A DNA stretch of 46,509 nucleotides from Candidatus Moduliflexus flocculans (GTDB lineage: Bacteria; Moduliflexota; Moduliflexia; Moduliflexales; Moduliflexaceae): assembly GCA_000739515.1 (NCBI GenBank), contig DF820455.1, positions 1,258,203-1,304,711 of the forward strand, read 5' to 3'. Every line of letters starts with the position of its first letter. The stretch's first letter is position 1. The notes beneath the pieces were generated by a model that was not told the DNA's origin, did not search any database, and saw only the letters and a list, made by a program, of their open reading frames with translations. Positions 1,248-38,617 of this stretch are shown here, piece by piece. Made by a program: the position numbers and the translations under genes.

Positions 1248-1265
1248 TATAAATAGAGAATCAAA

Positions 1266-1298
1266 CCTCACAGGTTTCAAAAACCTGTGAGGTTTGTT
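1266..1298 (+). terminator. Family-1 palindromic hairpin CCTCACAGGT-tttcaaaa-ACCTGTGAGG followed by TTTGTTG. Terminator-like or REP-like.
   Basis: A perfect 10-bp inverted repeat read directly in the sequence. It sits 19 bp after the stop of the preceding gene. Near-identical copies occur at 9764-9795 and 32326-32352. Confidence 0.6.
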
Positions 1299-2452: not shown

Positions 2453-2495
2453 TTCAGTGACGTTACGCAGCAGGTTCGATACGAATGGCCGCACA

Positions 2496-2639
2496 CTCCC
2501 CTACTGGGAGCAGGGTTGTGACGTTCTCTCACCTCACCCCCGGCCCCTCTCCGAAGGAGAGGGGAGACGCCCTCCCCTTCGGGGAGGGGGGGGGAGGGGT
2601 TTCCGGGAGAACGTCACAGTCCTGCCTCCTGGGAGGGGA
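2496..2639. repeat. Composite GC-rich inverted-repeat element. Roughly 32-bp imperfect terminal inverted repeats (cccctactgggagcagggttgtgacgttctc / gagaacgtcacagtcctgcctcctgggagggg) flank two internal tetraloop hairpins (cccctctcc-gaag-gagagggg; ccctcccc-ttcg-gggaggg) and a G9 tract.
   Basis: Inverted repeats and hairpins read directly from the sequence. The element lies in the 330-bp gap between the frameshifted HK gene and the giant kinase gene. Confidence 0.6.
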
Positions 2640-2784
2640 ATGGTCGGCGGCGCGACGTAATATCAGTAATTCGGTTTCTAACGTTTTTTTGATGCCTCGT
2701 CGCCTTTCAGGATGCCAGGGTGGTTAAGTTCCCAACTGCGCCAACGGCGCAACTCATATTAGCCCGTTCTGTGCGAAAAATAGT

Positions 2785-5700
2785 ATGAATGCCGCATTTC
2801 AGCCATTTATCGCGCCGCCGCTGTTATTGTATGACGGAGAGAATTCGCGCATTTATCGCGCAGAACTCGTTGAAACTCATGCGCCCGTCATTCTGAAAGT
2901 CCTTCGTTCCGATACCCCCACCCAACGCCAGCGCATTCAATTTTATAACGAATACGATTTTACCAAAGATTTGACCATTACAGGCGTGCGTTCTGCCTGC
3001 GGTCAGACGATCATCGAGCGGCATGATACACTGATTTTGCATTATGTGGATGGCTGCACGCTGAAGGAATGGCTGACGCACACTCCGCGTGCGTTGTCCG
3101 ATTTGCTACGAGTGGCGATTCGGATCGCGCAGATTCTCGGCGAAATTCACCAACATCACCTGATTCACAAGGATATCAACAGCCAGAATATTTTGATCCA
3201 ACCGGAACAGCAGAATGTGACGATTATTGATTTCGGCATTGCGTCGAAAGTGAGCTTAAAAATGCCGCATCTCGGCCACCCTGACCTGCTGGAAGGGACG
3301 CTGGCCTATATCTCGCCGGAGCAGACCGGCAGGATGAACCGCGTGGTGGACGAGCGCACCGATCTCTATTCTTTAGGCGTCACGCTGTATGAGATGTTTA
3401 CCGCGCATCTGCCGTTCGAGTCAGACGACCCGATGGAATTGGTGCATGCACATCTTGCCAAAACGCCGACCTCGCCGAATCAGATCAATCCCGAAATTCC
3501 TGATGCGCTTGGCCGCATTTTATTAAAGTTGTTAGCTAAAAATGCCGAAGACCGCTATCAATCGGCGTTTGGGCTGAAATGGGATTTGGAACAGTGCTTG
3601 GCGCGCCTTGAGACGTCATCTGTTTCCGCAATTGACGCGGAATTTCAGCTTGCGCAGCGCGACATTTCCGGCAAACTTCACCTGCCAGAGCGGTTGTATG
3701 GCCGGGAGCAGGAAATTGAAATCTTGCGGCAAGCATTTGAGCGGATCGCAAGCGCTTCTTCAAATGCGGCAGGGCATTCGGGGAAGGCCGAGTTACTGTT
3801 GGTTTCCGGCGTTGCCGGCGTTGGAAAATCGGCGTTAGCGCACGAGATGCACAGTCCGGTTGCCGCGCAACAGGGCTATTTTATTCAGGGCAAATTCGAT
3901 CAATTCCAGCAAGATATTCCGTATAGCGCGTTTATTCAAGCATTCGAGCAATTCGTCGAGGCACTGTTGACCTTCCCGGAAGCCGAACTCCGGCGCTGGC
4001 GCGACGCACTTCTTGCGGCGGCGGGGGGCATCGGCAAAGTGCTGACCGAATTGATTCCGACCTTAGAGTTCATTATCGGCAAGCAGCCAGAACTACCGGT
4101 TTCAGACAGCATTTCCGTTCAAAATCGTTTTGATTATGCGCTGCGCTGCTTCATTGGCGCCATCGCCCGCGCCGACCACCCGTTAGTGATTTTCTTAGAC
4201 GATTGGCAGTGGGCGGATTGGCCGTCTATCAAGCTGCTGGAAACGCTGTTGATGGATAAGACGCTTGAGCATCTCCTGATCATTGCGGCGTTCCGGGAAA
4301 ATGAGGTCGTTCCGACGCATCCATTTCTCCTGGCTGTGGAGCAGATCAGACAGACCGGAAGAGGCGCGCAGACGCTCCAGATCAAAAATCTAACCTTTGC
4401 CGATGTCTGCGCGTTGCTGGCGGACGCGCTTCAAAATCGCGCAATTGCTAACGTGCAGGGGTTAGCGCGGTTAGTGTATGGCAAGACGCAAGGGAACGCT
4501 TTTTTTACGCGCCAATTTCTGATCGCGCTGTATGAAGATGGCTTGCTGACGCTTGATTCCGAACAAATGGCGTGGCGCTGGGATATCGAGCAGATTCGAG
4601 AGAGAGCCATCTCAGATAACGTGGTCGCGCTGCTCACGCAAAAAGTGCAAAAGTTTTCCGCCGCGACGCAGCGCGCCTTATCCTTCGCGGCCTGCATCGG
4701 CAATCAGTTCCCCCTCTCCACCTTAGCCATCATTGCCGAACGGGAAGCGGCTGCCGTCAATCAGCTCTTAGAACCGGCAATTCTTGAAGGGTTGCTGCTC
4801 CCGAATCATCTCCATTTTCACCGGGCTGATCCGACGACCCTGCTCTATCGGTTTGCGCATGATCGCATCCAACAGGCGGCGTATACTCTTGTTCCCGATG
4901 CGGAGAAGCAGGCCGCACACTTGCGAATCGGGCGGCTGCTCCTCTCGAATATTCAGAAACATCAGTTCAGCGCAGATTCGGCTGAAATGGCGCGTTCGCC
5001 AGAACTTGACGAACGCCTGTTCGAAATTGTCAACCATTGGAATCTCGGACGGCACTTGATTGAAACGGCGGCAGAAAATATCGTGTTGGCGCGTTTGAAC
5101 CTGTGGGCAGGGCAAAAAGCCAAAGCGTCTGCCGCGCATGAATCCGCGCTGCATTATCTCTCCATCGGGATTGAGAACCTGCCAGAAGATGCCTGGGAAC
5201 GCTGGTATCCATTGACCTTTGCACTCTACCGTGAACAGTATGAATGCGCGTATGTATCAGGGAATTTCGAACAGGCGGAGCAACTATTTTCAATGATTTT
5301 GACTCATGCTCATTCAACAATAGATGCGGCAGCGATCTATAATATTCGCTTGATCAATTATGTCGGAGTCGCAAAAGAGCATGAATCATTCGATATTGGT
5401 CAGAAGGCGCTGCGCTTGTTCGGGATGAGCTTACCTGAAGGCGATCTGAATGCCGAGATTGTCAGAGAATTAGAGGCGATTCAGATGCGTTTACGCAACA
5501 AAGCGATTGCCGATCTTGTGCATCTGCCGCTCGTCACACATCCAGAATGCCGTGAAGCGATCAGAATTTTTATGAACCTTCTTACGCCCGCTTTTATCAG
5601 TAATCCCCTGTTATTCAAGTTTCTTATTGCGAAAGTCGTGCATATTAGCTTAGAAGAGGGTTTAACTCCAGAAATGCCCCAGGTATTCGCCGGATATGCC

Positions 5701-8700
5701 TCATTATTGGAAGAGATGTTTGACGATTATCACACCGCTGCCGAATTCGGGCGATTAGCGATCCGCCTGAGCGAGCGTTTTGATAATCCCTCGCAAAAGT
5801 GTCGAACGTACCATACAGTTGCAATATTTATCAAGCCTTGGATAAAGCCGTTGCATTCCAGCACGGCGTTAGCCCGGCAAGGCTTCCAATATGGGATGGA
5901 ATCGGGCGAATTCGCGTATGCGGTTTATTGTCTGACGGTGGTGGCATTAATGCGGCTGACGCAGGGCACGGAATTGAACAGCGTCTTGCAAGTGTTTATC
6001 GAGATGGATAACATTTCTCAAAAAGCGCGCTACTATGGAATTGTGGAAAATATTCTCGCCACGCGGCAATTAGTTATCTGTCTTCAAGGACATACGGCCA
6101 ATCCAGGAACGTTTAATGATGAACACTTTTGCGAGGAGACATTCTTAGAGCAGATGAAGATGTCTCCTGTGGCTCGTTGTGAATTTTATACATATAAATT
6201 ACAAGCGTTTTATCTGTATGAGCGTTATGAAGACGCCTGGCGCATGGCACTTCACGCTGAGCCGCTGTTGCCTTCTATGGCTGGAATTGTGGCTGAAGCC
6301 GAGTATAATCTGTATGCGTCATTGACGCTCTGCGCTCTGTATTTAGCGGCGGATTCGCTGGAACAACAGCAATATCGCGAACGCTTGCGGGTAAATCAAC
6401 AACGGATGCAACGCTGGGCTGAGAATTGCGCTGAAAATTTCAGGCACAAATATCTGCTGATAGAAGCCGAAATCGCCAGAATCGAAGGGCGAGATTGGGA
6501 GGCTGTTGCTAACTATCGTCAGGCCATTGCCGAAGCCCGACAGCAGAAATTCCTCCAAAATGAGGCGATTGGAAATGAATTGTTCGCCAAATTCTGGCTC
6601 GCGCATGGGGACGAGCGTTTGGCGAGCGCCTGTCTCGCCGATGCGTATGATGGCTACCGGCGCTGGGGCGCTGATGGCAAAGTCGCTGACCTGAAAGCGC
6701 GTTATCCGCATCTGCTTATCAGAATGTCATTTGCGCAGCGTCCTTCGGGACAGGAGACCTCTCAAACAGACACGTCCAGCAACAGCACGACCGGCGCGAT
6801 GCTGGATGTCGCGACGGTCTTGAAAGCGTCACAGACGCTTTCCAGCGAGATTGTGCTGCCGGAATTGCTGAAAAAGATGATGCGGCTCGTGATGGAAAAT
6901 GCCGGGGCGCAAAAGGCGGCGCTGTTGCTCGAACAAAATGGCGTCTGGTTGGTGGAAGCTGAGAGCAGGATGGACAATGAAGAAATCGCGACCTTGCAGG
7001 CGCGTCCGCTTGACGAGCGTGATGGACATGCCGCGCCAGCCTTTGCACAGGCGATTATTACGTATGTCATGCGGACACAAACGCCGGTCGTGCTGCATGA
7101 TGCGGCCAATGAAGGCGTCTTCATTCATGATCCGTACATTATCGCACAACGTCCGAAATCTATTCTCTGCCTCCCGCTCATCAAGCAGGGACGGCTCGCC
7201 GGAATGCTTTATCTTGAAAATAATCTCGCGACCGGAGTCTTTACGCCCGTTCGGCTTGAACTATTAAACGCGCTTTCGGCGCAGATGATGATTTCGATTG
7301 AAAACGCGCTGCTGTATGCGACGCTTGAAAACAAGGTCAAAGAGCGCACGCGCGATTTAGAAACTGAAAAAGAAAAATTGCAGATCAGCGAACAACACGC
7401 GCAGGAATTAAAAGAGGCTGCCGAAACCGCCAATCGCGCGAAAAGTACCTTTTTGGCGCATATCAGCCATGAACTGCGCACGCCATTAAACGGCATTTTA
7501 GGCTATACTCAGTTGCTTCGCAATGATATTGGACTCGCCGGAAAACAACGCGACGCGGTGGCGGCGATTCATCGAAACGGAGAGCATCTGCTGCTGCTCA
7601 TCAACGATTTGCTTGATCTCTCGAAAATCGAATCGCAAAAGATGGAATTGTTCTTACAGACGTTTCCGCTGCCACTCTTTCTACAGAATCTAGTGGAAAC
7701 CAACGCCGATCGCGCCGCGCAGAAGGGACTGCGCGTCTATGCGGAGCTTTCGCCCGATCTCCCGCCCTTTGTGCATGCCGATGAGCGCCGTCTGCGGCAG
7801 ATACTCTTGAATCTGTTCAGCAATGCCATCAAATTTACGCATCATGGCTCAATCGTATTGCGTGTGTATCCTATCGAGGAGAGCAATCAGTCATCTTCTC
7901 CGCGCATTCATTTTGAAATTCAAGATACAGGCATTGGCATTGCCACCGAACATCTCTCGCAAGTTTTTATGGCATTTTTTCAGGTGAATCATCAATCCGC
8001 CTACGAAGGAAGCGGGTTAGGACTCACGATCAGCCAGCAGCTCGCGCGCCTCATGGGAAGCGAATTACGCGTCAACAGCACGGTCGGCAAAGGCAGCGTG
8101 TTCTGGTTCGAGGTGCGCCTTGCTGCTGCGGCAAACGCTTATGCGAACATTGCGCCGCCGCAGCGCCACATCCTCGGCGTTCGTGGCGAACAACGCAAAA
8201 TTCTGATTGTGGACGATCATGCCGGAAACCGGCAATTTTTGCAGGCATTGCTGCTCCCCTTAGGGTTTGACGTTCGCGAAGCCAGCAATGGACAGGAAGC
8301 AATTGAAATCGTCAGAACATGGCAGCCAGACGCGATTTTGATGGATTTAGTGATGCCGGTCATGGATGGATTCGAAGCGACCCGCCATATCCGCACTCTG
8401 AAAACTCACCCTGTTGTTATCGGCATCTCGGCCAGCGTGCTGACTCCGGCACGTCAAAATAGCTTTGCGGCAGGCTGCGATGATTTTTTGCCAAAACCGG
8501 TCTCATTCATCGAGCTATTGGACTGTTTGCAGCGGCATTTAGCGTTAGAGTGGGTCTATGCAAACACCGACGCAGACGACCTGGAAACGAAAGACGTTCG
8601 ACCGCCGAAAACAATCGTCTCTCCGACAACGACTCCTTCTCAGGATGTGCTGCTGAATATTTTACGATGCGCGGAAGGCGGCGACGTGACAGATTTGCAC

Positions 8701-8845: not shown

Positions 8846-9355
8846 TTACACTTCACGCGAATGAGCGGTTTGAGAAAATTTTAGCTGGTGGACATTATTC
8901 AGATATGTATGCTCGCTTGTGCTTAATAGTTGGAGCATTTGGGCTTTTTTGGCCGGATTGAGAATATCATCGAGCGTAATATTGGCGATAATCCCCATGA
9001 TGAATTTTTGGATTTCCCCCCAGATTGGCGAGATCTGACACGTGTCTGCCTGACCGCATTGCGCGGCATCTATCAGGCAATTCACCATATAAATTTTCCC
9101 TTCAATCACTTCGATAATGTCGCGCAGGCTGATCAATTCAGGCGCCCGCGATAATGTAAATCCGCCGCCGCTGCCGCGCCGCGAAAGCAGTATTCCGCCA
9201 CGACAGAGGTCTTGTAGAATTTTTCCTAAATACGATTTTGGAATCTGGCTCTGTTCCGAGATTTCGTCAATCGAAACATATTGCCCTCTGGCATGTTGCG
9301 CAATATAAAACAGCGCCAAAATGCCATAATTCCCGCGCGCAGTCAATTGCAGCAC
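8846..9355 (-). CDS. Rrf2-family (IscR/NsrR-like) transcriptional regulator with a three-cysteine cluster-binding motif (CLIDAAQCGQADTC).
   Basis: N-terminal winged helix matches the Rrf2 pattern (LQLTARGNYGILAL...VSIDEISE...IPKSYLGKILQDLCRGGILLSRRGSGGGFTLSR). GTG 9353-9355 gives a canonical Rrf2 N-terminus. The ORF-track start at 9382 is TTG and adds 9 atypical residues. Confidence 0.8.
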   Translation of the reverse strand: MLQLTARGNYGILALFYIAQHARGQYVSIDEISEQSQIPKSYLGKILQDLCRGGILLSRRGSGGGFTLSRAPELISLRDIIEVIEGKIYMVNCLIDAAQCGQADTCQISPIWGEIQKFIMGIIANITLDDILNPAKKAQMLQLLSTSEHTYLNNVHQLKFSQTAHSREV

Positions 9356-9763
9356 GACGTATCCCCCTCTTCTTAATGGCAAGGCTGTGAAGTTCTCGTT
9401 CCGCGTGGAACGAGGGGCAGCGCAACCCTCACAGGATTTAGAACGTCACAACTCTGCCTTCTTAATGGTCGAAGAATGTAATGCAGGTTTCTGTTGTGCT
9501 GTATGGCCGAATGCGAAGAAGTCAAGAGCGCAAAAAAGAAAAAGCCGCCCCGCTGTGAGATCAGAAAAAACGAGGGACGACAGGGTTGTTATCGCATTAT
9601 TCAATGACATTGGAGCCGGAGAACGCGTGTCAAATCTTGAGTTGACCGCAATATCAAAATTTCGCGCTCCTCATCGAATCTTTCGTCGTTTATATCAAGA
9701 GAGAAACCGCTTGACCGATTTATCAATTTAGTAAAATGCAAAAAATACATTCGCACAACAGAC

Positions 9764-9795
9764 CTCACAGGTCTCGAAGACCTGTGAGGTCTCCA
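9764..9795 (-). terminator. Family-1 hairpin copy (CCTCACAGGTCTCGAAGACCTGTGAGG). Its TTGTTG tail lies on the minus strand, so it is oriented as a minus-strand terminator.
   Basis: Perfect 10-bp stems. It lies in the divergent Rrf2/alr intergenic region, with no annotated minus-strand gene upstream of it. Confidence 0.5.
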
Positions 9796-9923
9796 CCACA
9801 AACATATTTTTTACATTTTACTTATGAATGAATTCTTTTGTAATTTTCGAGATATCCTGTTTGAAATCCAACTCGGAACGCGCAAAATTTTTCTTGACGG
9901 AAATTGCTGGCGGCACTTCAGCG

Positions 9924-13533: not shown

Positions 13534-13535
13534 TA

Positions 13536-13620
13536 GAACGCGGATGACGCGGATTGCGGATTCTCGCAAAAATTATTTTTATCATCGAAAATCCGAACAA
13601 TCCGCGTCATCCGCGTTCTC
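13536..13620. terminator. Family-4 long hairpin, GAACGCGGATGACGCGGATTG ... CAATCCGCGTCATCCGCGTTC. It sits between two convergent genes and probably acts as a bidirectional terminator.
   Basis: A 21-bp perfect inverted repeat with an AT-rich roughly 40-nt interior. A related copy lies at 38516-38605. Confidence 0.6.
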
Positions 13621-13632
13621 TTTCCAAAACGC

Positions 13633-16823: not shown

Positions 16824-16975
16824 ACCACGAAACACACAAAATACACGAAAAAAATCGAACACTGATAACCTGATTGGACTGATTGACACTGATTTTTTAT
16901 CAGGATTGTTCAGCATGATCAGTCCAATCAGTGTTCTATTGATTTTTTCGTGTCGTTCGTGTGTTTCGTGGTGAA
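16824..16975. repeat. Roughly 150-bp nested palindrome between ruvA and ruvB. Outer 45-bp imperfect inverted repeat, inner perfect 14-bp inverted repeat (CTGATTGGACTGAT/ATCAGTCCAATCAG), central CTGATTTTTTATCAG. CTGAT recurs four times at 8-10 bp spacing.
   Basis: Read directly from the sequence. It occupies the entire ruvA-ruvB intergenic gap. Confidence 0.6.
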
Positions 16976-19347: not shown

Positions 19348-19361
19348 ATCCCGCCACCGAA

Positions 19362-19397
19362 CCCGTCAGACACCTGCAAGGTGTCTGACGGGTTTTA
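19362..19397 (+). terminator. Family-2 hairpin CCCGTCAGACACCT-gcaa-AGGTGTCTGACGGG followed by TTTTAC. Candidate intrinsic terminator of glgC.
   Basis: 14-bp perfect stem. A second copy with the same GTCAGACACCT core lies at 29760-29796. Confidence 0.6.
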
Positions 19398-29464: not shown

Positions 29465-29759
29465 ACGCTCCTCCTTCGTTTTAATGGTTTTTGGATAAGA
29501 CCTCAGAGGCTGTTCTAACAGTCTGGAGTGCCAAAGCTTGCTTTGGCTGACAACGCAAGCAATGAACTGTCATAATGCTCGCATCTATGTATAGAAGGGA
29601 AAGTAAGGTTGTTCGATGAGAAAGTCAATAAAAAAATAGGAAAGACAGAAATGTCTTGTCACAATAATAATCTACGGCAGATTAACTGATGGGTTGAACA
29701 TGCCGCGCTGGAATTACGCTTGACAGAATGCTCGGCGTTCTGATAAGGTTGCGGGGAAA

Positions 29760-29796
29760 CTGTCAGACACCTTAAAGGTGTCTGACAGTTTTTTGG
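29760..29796 (+). terminator. Family-2 hairpin CTGTCAGACACCT-taa-AGGTGTCTGACAG plus TTTTTTGG. A strong intrinsic-terminator-like structure 50 bp upstream of cbiD.
   Basis: 13-bp perfect stem followed by a T6 run on the plus strand. It lies in the cbiD leader. Confidence 0.6.
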
Positions 29797-30942: not shown

Positions 30943-31144
30943 TTTGGTTTTTGTCATAAGATATTACTGATCCAGTCATTTTCAGGAGTGCAAACGCGTG
31001 CTTGCCGCATGAAGTCGTCACGTCTTTCCCTGACGTTATCAGACCGCAAAAGCAGTCACAGTACCATCCCTCGAAACCGTCGAACAGGAACTTGCGAAGG
31101 TATCGGCGAAATGATTTGCGGAAATCTGCGGTTGACGCATTGTT

Positions 31145-32306: not shown

Positions 32307-32325
32307 AAACAACGACCGGATAACA

Positions 32326-32358
32326 CCTCACAGGTTTTGAAAACCTGTGAGGTTTGTA
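32326..32358 (+). terminator. Family-1 hairpin copy (CCTCACAGGTTTTGAAAACCTGTGAGG + TTTGTATG) located inside the cbi operon between cbiT and cbiL.
   Basis: Perfect 10-bp stems. It ends 10 nt before the cbiL start codon. Confidence 0.55.
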
Positions 32359-33042: not shown

Positions 33043-33080
33043 TAGGGTGCAAAAGCAAGCTTTTGCACTCCTATTTTTCT
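33043..33080 (+). terminator. Family-5 perfect palindrome GGAGTGCAAAAGC-AA-GCTTTTGCACTCC followed by TATTTTTCT, between cbiL and cbiF.
   Basis: 13-bp perfect arms plus a T-run. Other copies at 33841-33891 (tandem/extended), 30983-31011 (degenerate) and 29527-29552 (degenerate). Confidence 0.6.
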
Positions 33081-33840: not shown

Positions 33841-33891
33841 CAGGAGTGCAAAAGCTTGCTTTTGCGGCAAAAGCAAGCTTTTGCACTCCTG
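33841..33891. repeat. Family-5 palindrome in extended/tandem form (CAGGAGTGCAAAAGCTTGCTTTTGC-GGC-AAAAGCAAGCTTTTGCACTCCTG), between cbiF and cbiG.
   Basis: A 51-bp near-perfect palindrome read directly. Confidence 0.6.
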
Positions 33892-38509: not shown

Positions 38510-38515
38510 CAACAG

Positions 38516-38605
38516 AGAGAACGCGGATGATGCGGAGCGCGCGGATTCTCGCGGAAACACAACGCCATCTGTGAAAATCCGCGCCATGCGCGTTATGCGC
38601 GTTCT
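38516..38605. terminator. Family-4 long hairpin (GAGAACGCGGATGATGCGGAGCGCGCGGATTCTC ... GAAAATCCGCGCCATGCGCGTTATGCGCGTTCTC).
   Basis: Imperfect inverted repeat of about 34 bp. It shares the GAGAACGCGGATGA/TCATCCGCGTTCTC termini with the copy at 13536. Confidence 0.55.
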
Positions 38606-38617
38606 CTCTCCGATTGT

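Follow-up and report, generated by a model that had tools for sequence, protein, structure and literature searches.

BoxC/PIT/TM motifs are built from a pyrimidine block, a complementary purine block, and a mirror purine block able to fold back as an intrastrand triplex, and they are abundant in many bacteria, often as inverted pairs, and have been linked to local genome instability (PMC4666352). In E. coli, 5 loci carry inverted TM pairs (Holder et al. 2015, PMC4666352). TMECO oligonucleotides were examined by CD or NMR for triplex formation, and the E. coli study found no link between the motif and mobile elements, phages, or transposons (PMC4666352).

Bacterial MITEs such as Correia, RUP, and the cyanobacterial Nezha are the other close comparison for the repeats described here, which we call the E family. 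Like these MITEs, the E family is small (206–309 nt) and non-coding, with terminal inverted repeats and target duplications; it has many intergenic copies, apparent presence/absence differences between close relatives, and a long-hairpin fold. Unlike them, it has unusually long arms (60–70 nt) of two end types, a long duplication (11 bp), no known parent insertion sequence, and interiors that change entirely from one copy to the next, being made up of other families of palindromic repeats. The E family is a previously undescribed MITE-like family carrying an already known kind of motif. In the genome paper of Ca. M. flocculans (PeerJ 2015), no repeats are mentioned other than CRISPR and rRNA operons.

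We analysed a 46,509-nt stretch of the Ca. M. flocculans genome (the window), in which a GC-rich inverted repeat had been picked out upstream of a giant kinase gene. The complete element at this position, E1, is quite probably a non-autonomous transposon-like repeat (MITE). The family to which it belongs is so far known solely from Moduliflexaceae, namely Candidatus Moduliflexus and Vecturithrix.

Extent and fold of E1

E1 is located between the stop codon (2452) of a response-regulator/histidine-kinase gene (RR-HK) and the ATG (2785) of a gene for a 2014-aa kinase. It begins directly past the RR-HK stop codon and finishes 120 nt upstream of the giant-kinase ATG. The kinase matched a Ca. M. 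flocculans protein at 100% identity. E1 and a partial copy beside it, E3, make up most of the 332-nt RR-HK/kinase spacer. The ends of E1 were set by alignment of its arms to copies in other Moduliflexus MAGs. The features of the family in the window are as follows.

2448–2458: left flanking repeat of E1 (putative target-site duplication), 11 bp, AGTAATTCAGT, holding the RR-HK TAA stop (2450–2452)
2459–2664, plus strand: E1, complete 206-nt MITE-like element, start GACGTTACGCAGC, finish CGACGTAATATC, with the motif GAYRTTACGC at both termini
2459–2528, plus strand: left ("long") arm of E1, a terminal inverted repeat with the extra segment ...TTCGATACGAATGGCC..., then CTCCCCTACTGGGAGCAGGGTTGTGACGTTCTC
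2532–2564, minus strand: motif A (BoxC/PIT/TM kind), CCCCTCTCC-TTC-GGAGAGGGG-CCG-GGGGTGAGG, the first hairpin of the sequence-only reading plus its C-rich 5' flank
2570–2599, plus strand: motif B, CCCTCCCC-TTC-GGGGAGGG-GGG-GGGAGGGG
2607–2664, plus strand: right ("short") arm of E1, GAGAACGTCACAGTCCTGCCTCCTGGGAGGGGAATGGTCGGCGGCGCGACGTAATATC
2665–2675: right flanking repeat of E1, 11 bp, AGTAATTCGGT
2703–2765, plus strand: E3, partial third copy with one arm core (GCCAGGGTGGTTAAGTTCCC) and interior GCGCCAACGGCGCAACTCATATTAGCCC
9378–9458, plus strand: E2, short degenerate copy with left arm core 9378–9397 (GGCAAGGCTGTGAAGTTCTC) and right core 9439–9458 (TAGAACGTCACAACTCTGCC)

The sequence-only reading had placed an inverted repeat with ~32-bp arms at 2496–2639. 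The inverted repeat is present and forms a very stable long hairpin, but its arms go well past this extent and the element occupies 2459–2664. The arms pair across ~60–70 nt, and the whole element is a single long hairpin. Inverted-repeat pairs were detected in the arms (2488–2510/2626–2648) and in two inner hairpins (2544–2552/2556–2564 and 2570–2577/2581–2588). The inner loops, taken earlier for GAAG/UUCG-type tetraloops, are best read as 3-nt loops, GAA and TTC, on stems of 9 bp and 8 bp, respectively. A tract of nine G reported between the arms was found at 2586–2594 and is the sole G or C homopolymer of at least 8 nt in the whole window. The predicted RNA fold of 2480–2660 had an energy of −128.6 kcal/mol, compared with −85.4 ± 4.6 kcal/mol for shuffled sequences (z = −9.3, with 0 of 200 shuffles as good). 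The minus-strand fold of the same segment gave z = −8.4, and with DNA parameters z was −7.4.

The left-arm type of E1 is common to the left arm of the copy at locus L029 and to locus L009 in the alignment (nhmmer E = 8.5e-20). The right arms of E1 and of the L029 copy were 83% identical across 65 nt, and nhmmer gave E = 8.4e-17 for the former. Neither E1 (206 nt) nor the L029 copy (309 nt) has coding capacity, and the overlapping ORFs are all spurious.

The RR-HK gene itself (1294–2452) is split into two frames at an A run at ~2070–2082 (...SAQKK / KQIHL...), and its ortholog in the relative L003 is one intact 377-aa ORF. The split is either a real frameshift/pseudogene or a homopolymer assembly error.

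Copies in the window and in other genomes

The terminal motif of the repeat had been reported to recur at 9441–9463, upstream of an Rrf2 regulator gene, with 20 of 23 bases identical. The recurrence held with a relaxed pattern for which 0.02 chance matches are expected, but its position is 9440–9462 and its identity 19 of 23 without gaps; the motif as written, ..TC.TGCCT.CT, fits neither copy exactly. It is also not a lone motif upstream of Rrf2, since site 9440 is the right arm of the inverted-repeat element E2. E2 gave nhmmer matches for both arms and has a 41-nt interior with a GTTCCGCGTGGAAC hairpin. The Rrf2 gene, on the minus strand with a GTG start at 9355, begins 23 nt downstream of E2, and its Rrf2 domain was confirmed. 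The relative L003 has kept E2 at 7832–7912. This retention says little, because the whole Rrf2–Alr spacer is ~95% identical between the two, and a special conservation of E2 was rejected, since the remainder of the spacer is at least as well conserved. E3 adjoins E1 and finishes 19 nt before the giant-kinase ATG. Aligned with the right part of the L029 copy in reverse complement, E3 was identical at 50 of 63 positions, and a 28-nt interior segment had 1 mismatch.

The Rrf2 ribosome-binding stretch AAGAAGAGGGGGATAC-GTG (9356–9377, minus strand) aligned weakly with the outer GGAGGGGAGT part of the E-family arm (nhmmer E = 0.002, mostly from the arm core). From this weak alignment, the Rrf2 translation start signals may lie in old repeat DNA.

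A whole-genome search for the motif had been proposed, and outside the window the arms were found in other genomes. We scanned 185,579 genomes, one per bacterial or archaeal species, with the arm pattern AGAACGTCACARYYCTGCY and obtained 47 stretches. Seven of these were in three Moduliflexaceae MAGs (two Ca. Moduliflexus and one Ca. Vecturithrix), and all seven matches are the arm of an inverted-repeat element. Of the others, one is an unrelated coding repeat, and the rest appear to be single, scattered matches. An nhmmer arm profile retrieved E1, E2, and further copies with two arms each. E-family arms occur in at least 10 intergenic places in Moduliflexaceae genomes. There are 3 copies or fragments in the 46.5-kb window, 4 stretches in one Moduliflexus MAG, and 3 elements in two Vecturithrix stretches.

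The E-family sequence was not found outside Moduliflexaceae in the collections searched. A metagenome scan with the 18-nt arm core gave 27 stretches; among four inspected and checked by nhmmer, two had real arm context, and these were single arms from one dataset (JFJP01). The viral scan with the arm pattern gave 4 isolated matches, which were counted as chance.

The arms align over ~60–70 nt up to a common terminus, ...GCTGCGTAACATC, and diverge at once outside it. Two end types were observed, a long arm with an extra ...CCATTC..ATCGAA.. segment and a short arm without it; left arms end in TGCT and right arms in TGCC. The left arm cores of different copies are mutually identical at 19 of 20 positions, compared with 15 of 20 between a left core and its own right arm. 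Thus the ends are conserved as sequences, as transposon ends are, and not as base pairs. The spacing of the arms varies among copies (~42, 78, and up to ~180 nt). Their interiors are not related to one another and consist mostly of other palindromic repeats. All copies are intergenic, mostly between same-strand genes, and their neighbours are functionally unrelated (thiM/thiE, a hydrogenase operon with nuoF-like/Fe-hydrogenase genes, MFS/PNPOx, MCP, aldolase, and sugar dehydratase).

The intergenic DNA of M. flocculans is unusually rich in distinct hairpin repeats. The palindrome family (A)ACCTCACAGGTTT..AAACCTGTGAGGT(T) was seen at three intergenic sites of the window (1260–1297, 9757–9794, and 32320–32357), and a copy is present in L003 at 1190–1225, the RR-HK/kinase junction where the window has E1. 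The GGAGTGCAAAAGCTTGCTTTTGC family occurs at 29522–29560, 30979–31003, 33049–33072, and 33841–33891; it is also at the RR-HK/kinase junction in the relative L001 (9920–9968) and nested between the arms of the E-family copy at L019 (~5355–5400). Unrelated palindromic families CCGTCAGACACCT..., AGAACGCGGATGACGCGGATTG..., and ACCACGAAACACACAAAATACACGAAAAAA... were found at 19359–19396 and 29756–29793, at 13535–13621 and 38514–38609, and at 16824–16972, respectively. The interior of the L017 copy (~1190–1280) is filled by a GTCATTGCGAGCG...CAGCGAAGCAATC-type palindrome, and the metagenome contig L052 (~5640–5760) shows the reverse arrangement, with a single E-family arm in the loop of a palindrome of this type. 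In the Rrf2–Alr spacer, L003 lacks a block of ~170 nt (9711–9880) although the two spacers are ~95% identical apart from it. The block contains a palindrome with 45-nt arms (9730–9774/9778–9822) around a ACCTCACAGGTCT...AGACCTGTGAGGT core and thus has the look of a second recent insertion, by a repeat family other than the E family.

Flanking duplications and alternative explanations

Exactly outside the ends of E1, which had been set independently by alignment to other copies, AGTAATTCAGT and AGTAATTCGGT agree at 10 of 11 positions. The L029 copy (309 nt, 5792–6100) has a perfect 11 of 11 repeat, AATTATTTACT, on both sides. In both copies the stop codon of the neighbouring gene falls within one of the 11-mers. 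No other available copy has two intact ends, which leaves n = 2 for the 11-bp duplication. The flanking 11-mers match at 10–11 of 11 positions within a copy, compared with 7 of 11 between copies. By its sequence, this pattern is the signature of a putative target duplication at an AT-rich site, for which we assume a loose preference. Two other repeats were considered as duplications and set aside: a CTTCTTAATGG repeat flanking E2, the bases of which the family alignment puts inside the arms (AATGGTCG is common to the E1 right arm), and GAATGG repeats at ~2483 and ~2638, which also fall inside the arms.

A comparison with the orthologous spacer in related genomes had been suggested earlier. RR-HK and the kinase are adjacent in L003 and L001, and E1 is absent from both; the spacer is 332 nt in the window, 40 nt in L003 (kinase ortholog 85%), and 92 nt in L001 (83%). 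Each of these close relatives has a different small palindrome at the junction in place of E1, a GACCACACAGG...CCTGTGCGGTC hairpin in L003 (1190–1225) and a GGAGTGCCAAAGCTTGC... hairpin in L001 (9920–9968), both of other palindrome families which are also present in the window. The predicted empty site of E1 is GTCGCAGTAATTCAGTTTCTAACG, with one 11-mer and without E1. A clean empty site with a single 11-mer was not recovered at either the E1 or the L029 site, where relatives hold other elements or unalignable DNA; at the sites orthologous to the L029 copy, the element is absent and the junction is unalignable. After the orthologous MFS gene of a JGI relative (L205, ~4305–4400), a palindrome TTCCGCACCGCCGACGTCC...GGACGTCGGCGGTACGGAA is located where L029 has its E-family copy, and this MFS junction carries a different repeat in the L205 and L029 lineages.

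A MITE-like insertion was one of the origins proposed from the sequence, and it is the one the data favour: the copies are dispersed, two have 11-bp flanking duplications, and E1 is absent at its junction in two relatives. E1 is shorter than the ~500–600 bp that bound a MITE, and it has the non-coding character, the terminal inverted repeats, the flanking duplication, and the multiple dispersed copies of a MITE. A DDE-type transposase encoded elsewhere in the genome would recognise the GAYRTTACGC... ends and would insert E1 with an 11-bp staggered cut. Duplications of 10–13 bp point to the IS4 group of the ISfinder classification, which is a lead only. No autonomous partner with the same ends was found in ~140 kb of Moduliflexaceae DNA, where the terminal motif occurred at element ends only. 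The unrelated interiors are unusual and count against a single MITE family, so that nested insertion or repeated cargo replacement is needed as an explanation. E1 would have no dedicated function at the locus. Should the upstream gene be transcribed together with E1, the long hairpin of E1 would act as a passive block of structure within the spacer RNA. Our best reading is that E1 is a neutral or nearly neutral mobile repeat, and that any effect on the kinase gene is a by-product of the very stable spacer hairpin.

One rival explanation is a REP/BIME-type palindrome cluster spread by a RAYT-type (IS200/IS605-like, single-strand) transposase and not by cut-and-paste. The E family resembles REP/BIME in being intergenic, palindromic, and multi-copy, often between same-strand genes, and in having an inverted pair that encloses a linker of variable sequence. 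Short palindrome families abound in the genome, where they replace one another at the same junction and are nested centrally between paired arms; single-strand hairpin chemistry would be consistent with such nesting in hairpin loops. However, single-strand Y1 transposition makes no flanking duplications, and E1 and the L029 copy have 11-bp ones. REP/BIME units measure 20–40 nt and have no target duplication, and E1 departs from both, as its arms of 60–70 nt are far longer than REPs. No GTAG-type REP head and no RAYT gene were seen in the sequences examined, nor was any RAYT association of the family. We consider this origin of E1 very unlikely. A small structured RNA had also been proposed. 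E1 could be, or could have been co-opted as, a functional structured RNA in the 3' UTR of RR-HK or the 5' UTR of the kinase, with an exonuclease block, an RNase III cut, or read-through attenuation between the two genes as candidate roles. The extremely stable fold on both strands would agree with this, both arm mismatches of E1 are G-U wobbles on the plus strand, and in relatives the junction again holds a hairpin, from another family, as though one were tolerated or wanted there. The other evidence makes such a function unlikely, although somewhat less so than the REP/BIME origin. Rfam gave zero matches at the gathering threshold in the whole window, and a permissive search of 2400–2800 gave only miRNA-like hairpin noise, namely many miRNA-precursor hairpins and a best sub-threshold match to mraW (26.9 bits, threshold 50). 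A promoter and terminator scan of 2300–2900 found none, and no T-run follows the stem. The arms are conserved by end type and not by pairing, with 3–5 mismatches in 20 between own-partner arms. Earlier tests in E. coli detected neither promoter nor terminator activity for PIT/TM motifs (summarised in PMC4666352).

The remaining proposal was a pair of operator sites for a shared regulator, with the Rrf2 protein as candidate. Here the arms would be operator half-sites (AGAACGTCACAGCCCTGCC) for a shared transcription factor, e.g., Rrf2, linking control of the giant kinase and of Rrf2. In favour of this, E2 lies 23 nt before the Rrf2 start and L003 has kept it, and the arm core has a TGTGA...TCACA-like dyad symmetry. 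Rrf2-family operators are short dyads at fixed spacing before a coherent gene set, and the E-family arms show neither the fixed spacing nor such a gene set, given arm spacings of ~42, 78, and up to ~180 nt, unrelated interiors, and other copies inside or beside unrelated operons (thiM-thiE and nuoF-like/Fe-hydrogenase). E1 is moreover absent from relatives in which both flanking genes remain, it is 120 nt from the kinase ATG and directly after the stop codon of another gene, and E2 is conserved no better than its ~95%-identical spacer. This is the least probable of the explanations, and we give it hardly any weight.

Triplex-type inner motifs and the meaning of the family

Judged by their block structure, the inner hairpins and the G9 run of E1 are an inverted pair of putative intrastrand-triplex motifs of the BoxC/PIT/TM kind. 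Motifs A and B, which lie in inverted orientation to each other, both follow the three-block design, pyrimidine first, then the complementary purines, then the mirror purines, and their loops fall within the 1–6 nt of the published search criteria (PMC4666352). The third block of motif B is the exact mirror image of its second block. The G9 run (2586–2594) comprises the end of the second block of motif B, its second loop, and the start of the third block. The G9 tract, flagged earlier as a slipped-strand hot-spot, would thus be a component of motif B rather than a free-standing slippage tract, and slippage there may occur.

The inner modules of E1 share with the described BoxC/PIT/TM motifs the block order, the short first loop, the 3-nt second loop, the intergenic location, and the arrangement as an inverted pair; motif A also agrees in its second loop, CCG, which is of type B, and in having GGGGTGAGG as its third block. 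The TMECO consensus CCCTCNCCC-N3-6-GGGNGAGGG-N3-GGGNGAGGG was matched exactly by neither motif, and because of this A and B are regarded as variants of the design and not as members of the strict E. coli sequence family. Unlike TMECO, motif A is shifted by one base in register (CCCCTCTCC / GGAGAGGGG / GGGGTGAGG), and motif B has GGGGAGGG blocks interrupted by a single A, and its GGG loop gives rise to the G9 run. A further difference from the E. coli TM motifs is that the pair in E1 sits within a transposon-like element and that the motif-A core is common in viral contigs.

A blastn search of 2440–2780 against plasmids and phages matched only 2531–2569, at 90–92% identity, in a phage intergenic hairpin and in Cupriavidus and Sulfitobacter replicons; the E1 arms had no match in this search. 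The 21-nt core of motif A, CCTCACCCCCGNCCCCTCTCC, was present in at least 120 viral-contig stretches of IMG/VR (loci L084–L163 and later). Sixteen sites were found in five listed stretches of one viral contig (L087, L106, L116, L135, and L148, all from IMGVR_UViG_3300020057_000061), with varying loop lengths. This core reaches high copy number in single viral contigs, sometimes in tandem arrays with a period of ~72 nt.

The Vecturithrix copy at L031 has the same GGAGAGGG-CCG-GGGGTGAGGT block as E1, beside the same GTCCTGCC arm variant, which makes the triplex-motif cargo seem a feature of long standing in one subfamily. BoxC/PIT/TM motifs, for whose spread there is no explanation yet, might travel as cargo of transposon-like elements and phages. 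This is a tentative proposal with a rather low probability, and the observations bearing on it are an inverted TM pair inside a MITE with a target duplication, the same TM block beside the same arm variant in a second genus, and the viral-contig stretches, at least 120, that hold the motif-A core. In a related reading, the centre of long E-family palindromes would be a preferred landing site for other hairpin repeats, which would explain why the copies have common arms yet unrelated palindromic interiors.

The account of a shared Rrf2 control of the giant kinase was tempting and unsupported, and it is removed by this analysis. The 332-nt spacer upstream of the kinase is mostly repeat DNA which is not present in close relatives. 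The analysis documents a repeat family in a candidate phylum (KSB3, the Moduliflexus wastewater bulking filaments), and E1 is a concrete case of motifs of triplex type, by sequence, within a mobile element. E-family repeats matter for the assembly and binning of Moduliflexaceae genomes and are markers of very recent strain divergence. The most interesting thread, if true, is the spread of BoxC/PIT/TM motifs by such elements and phages.
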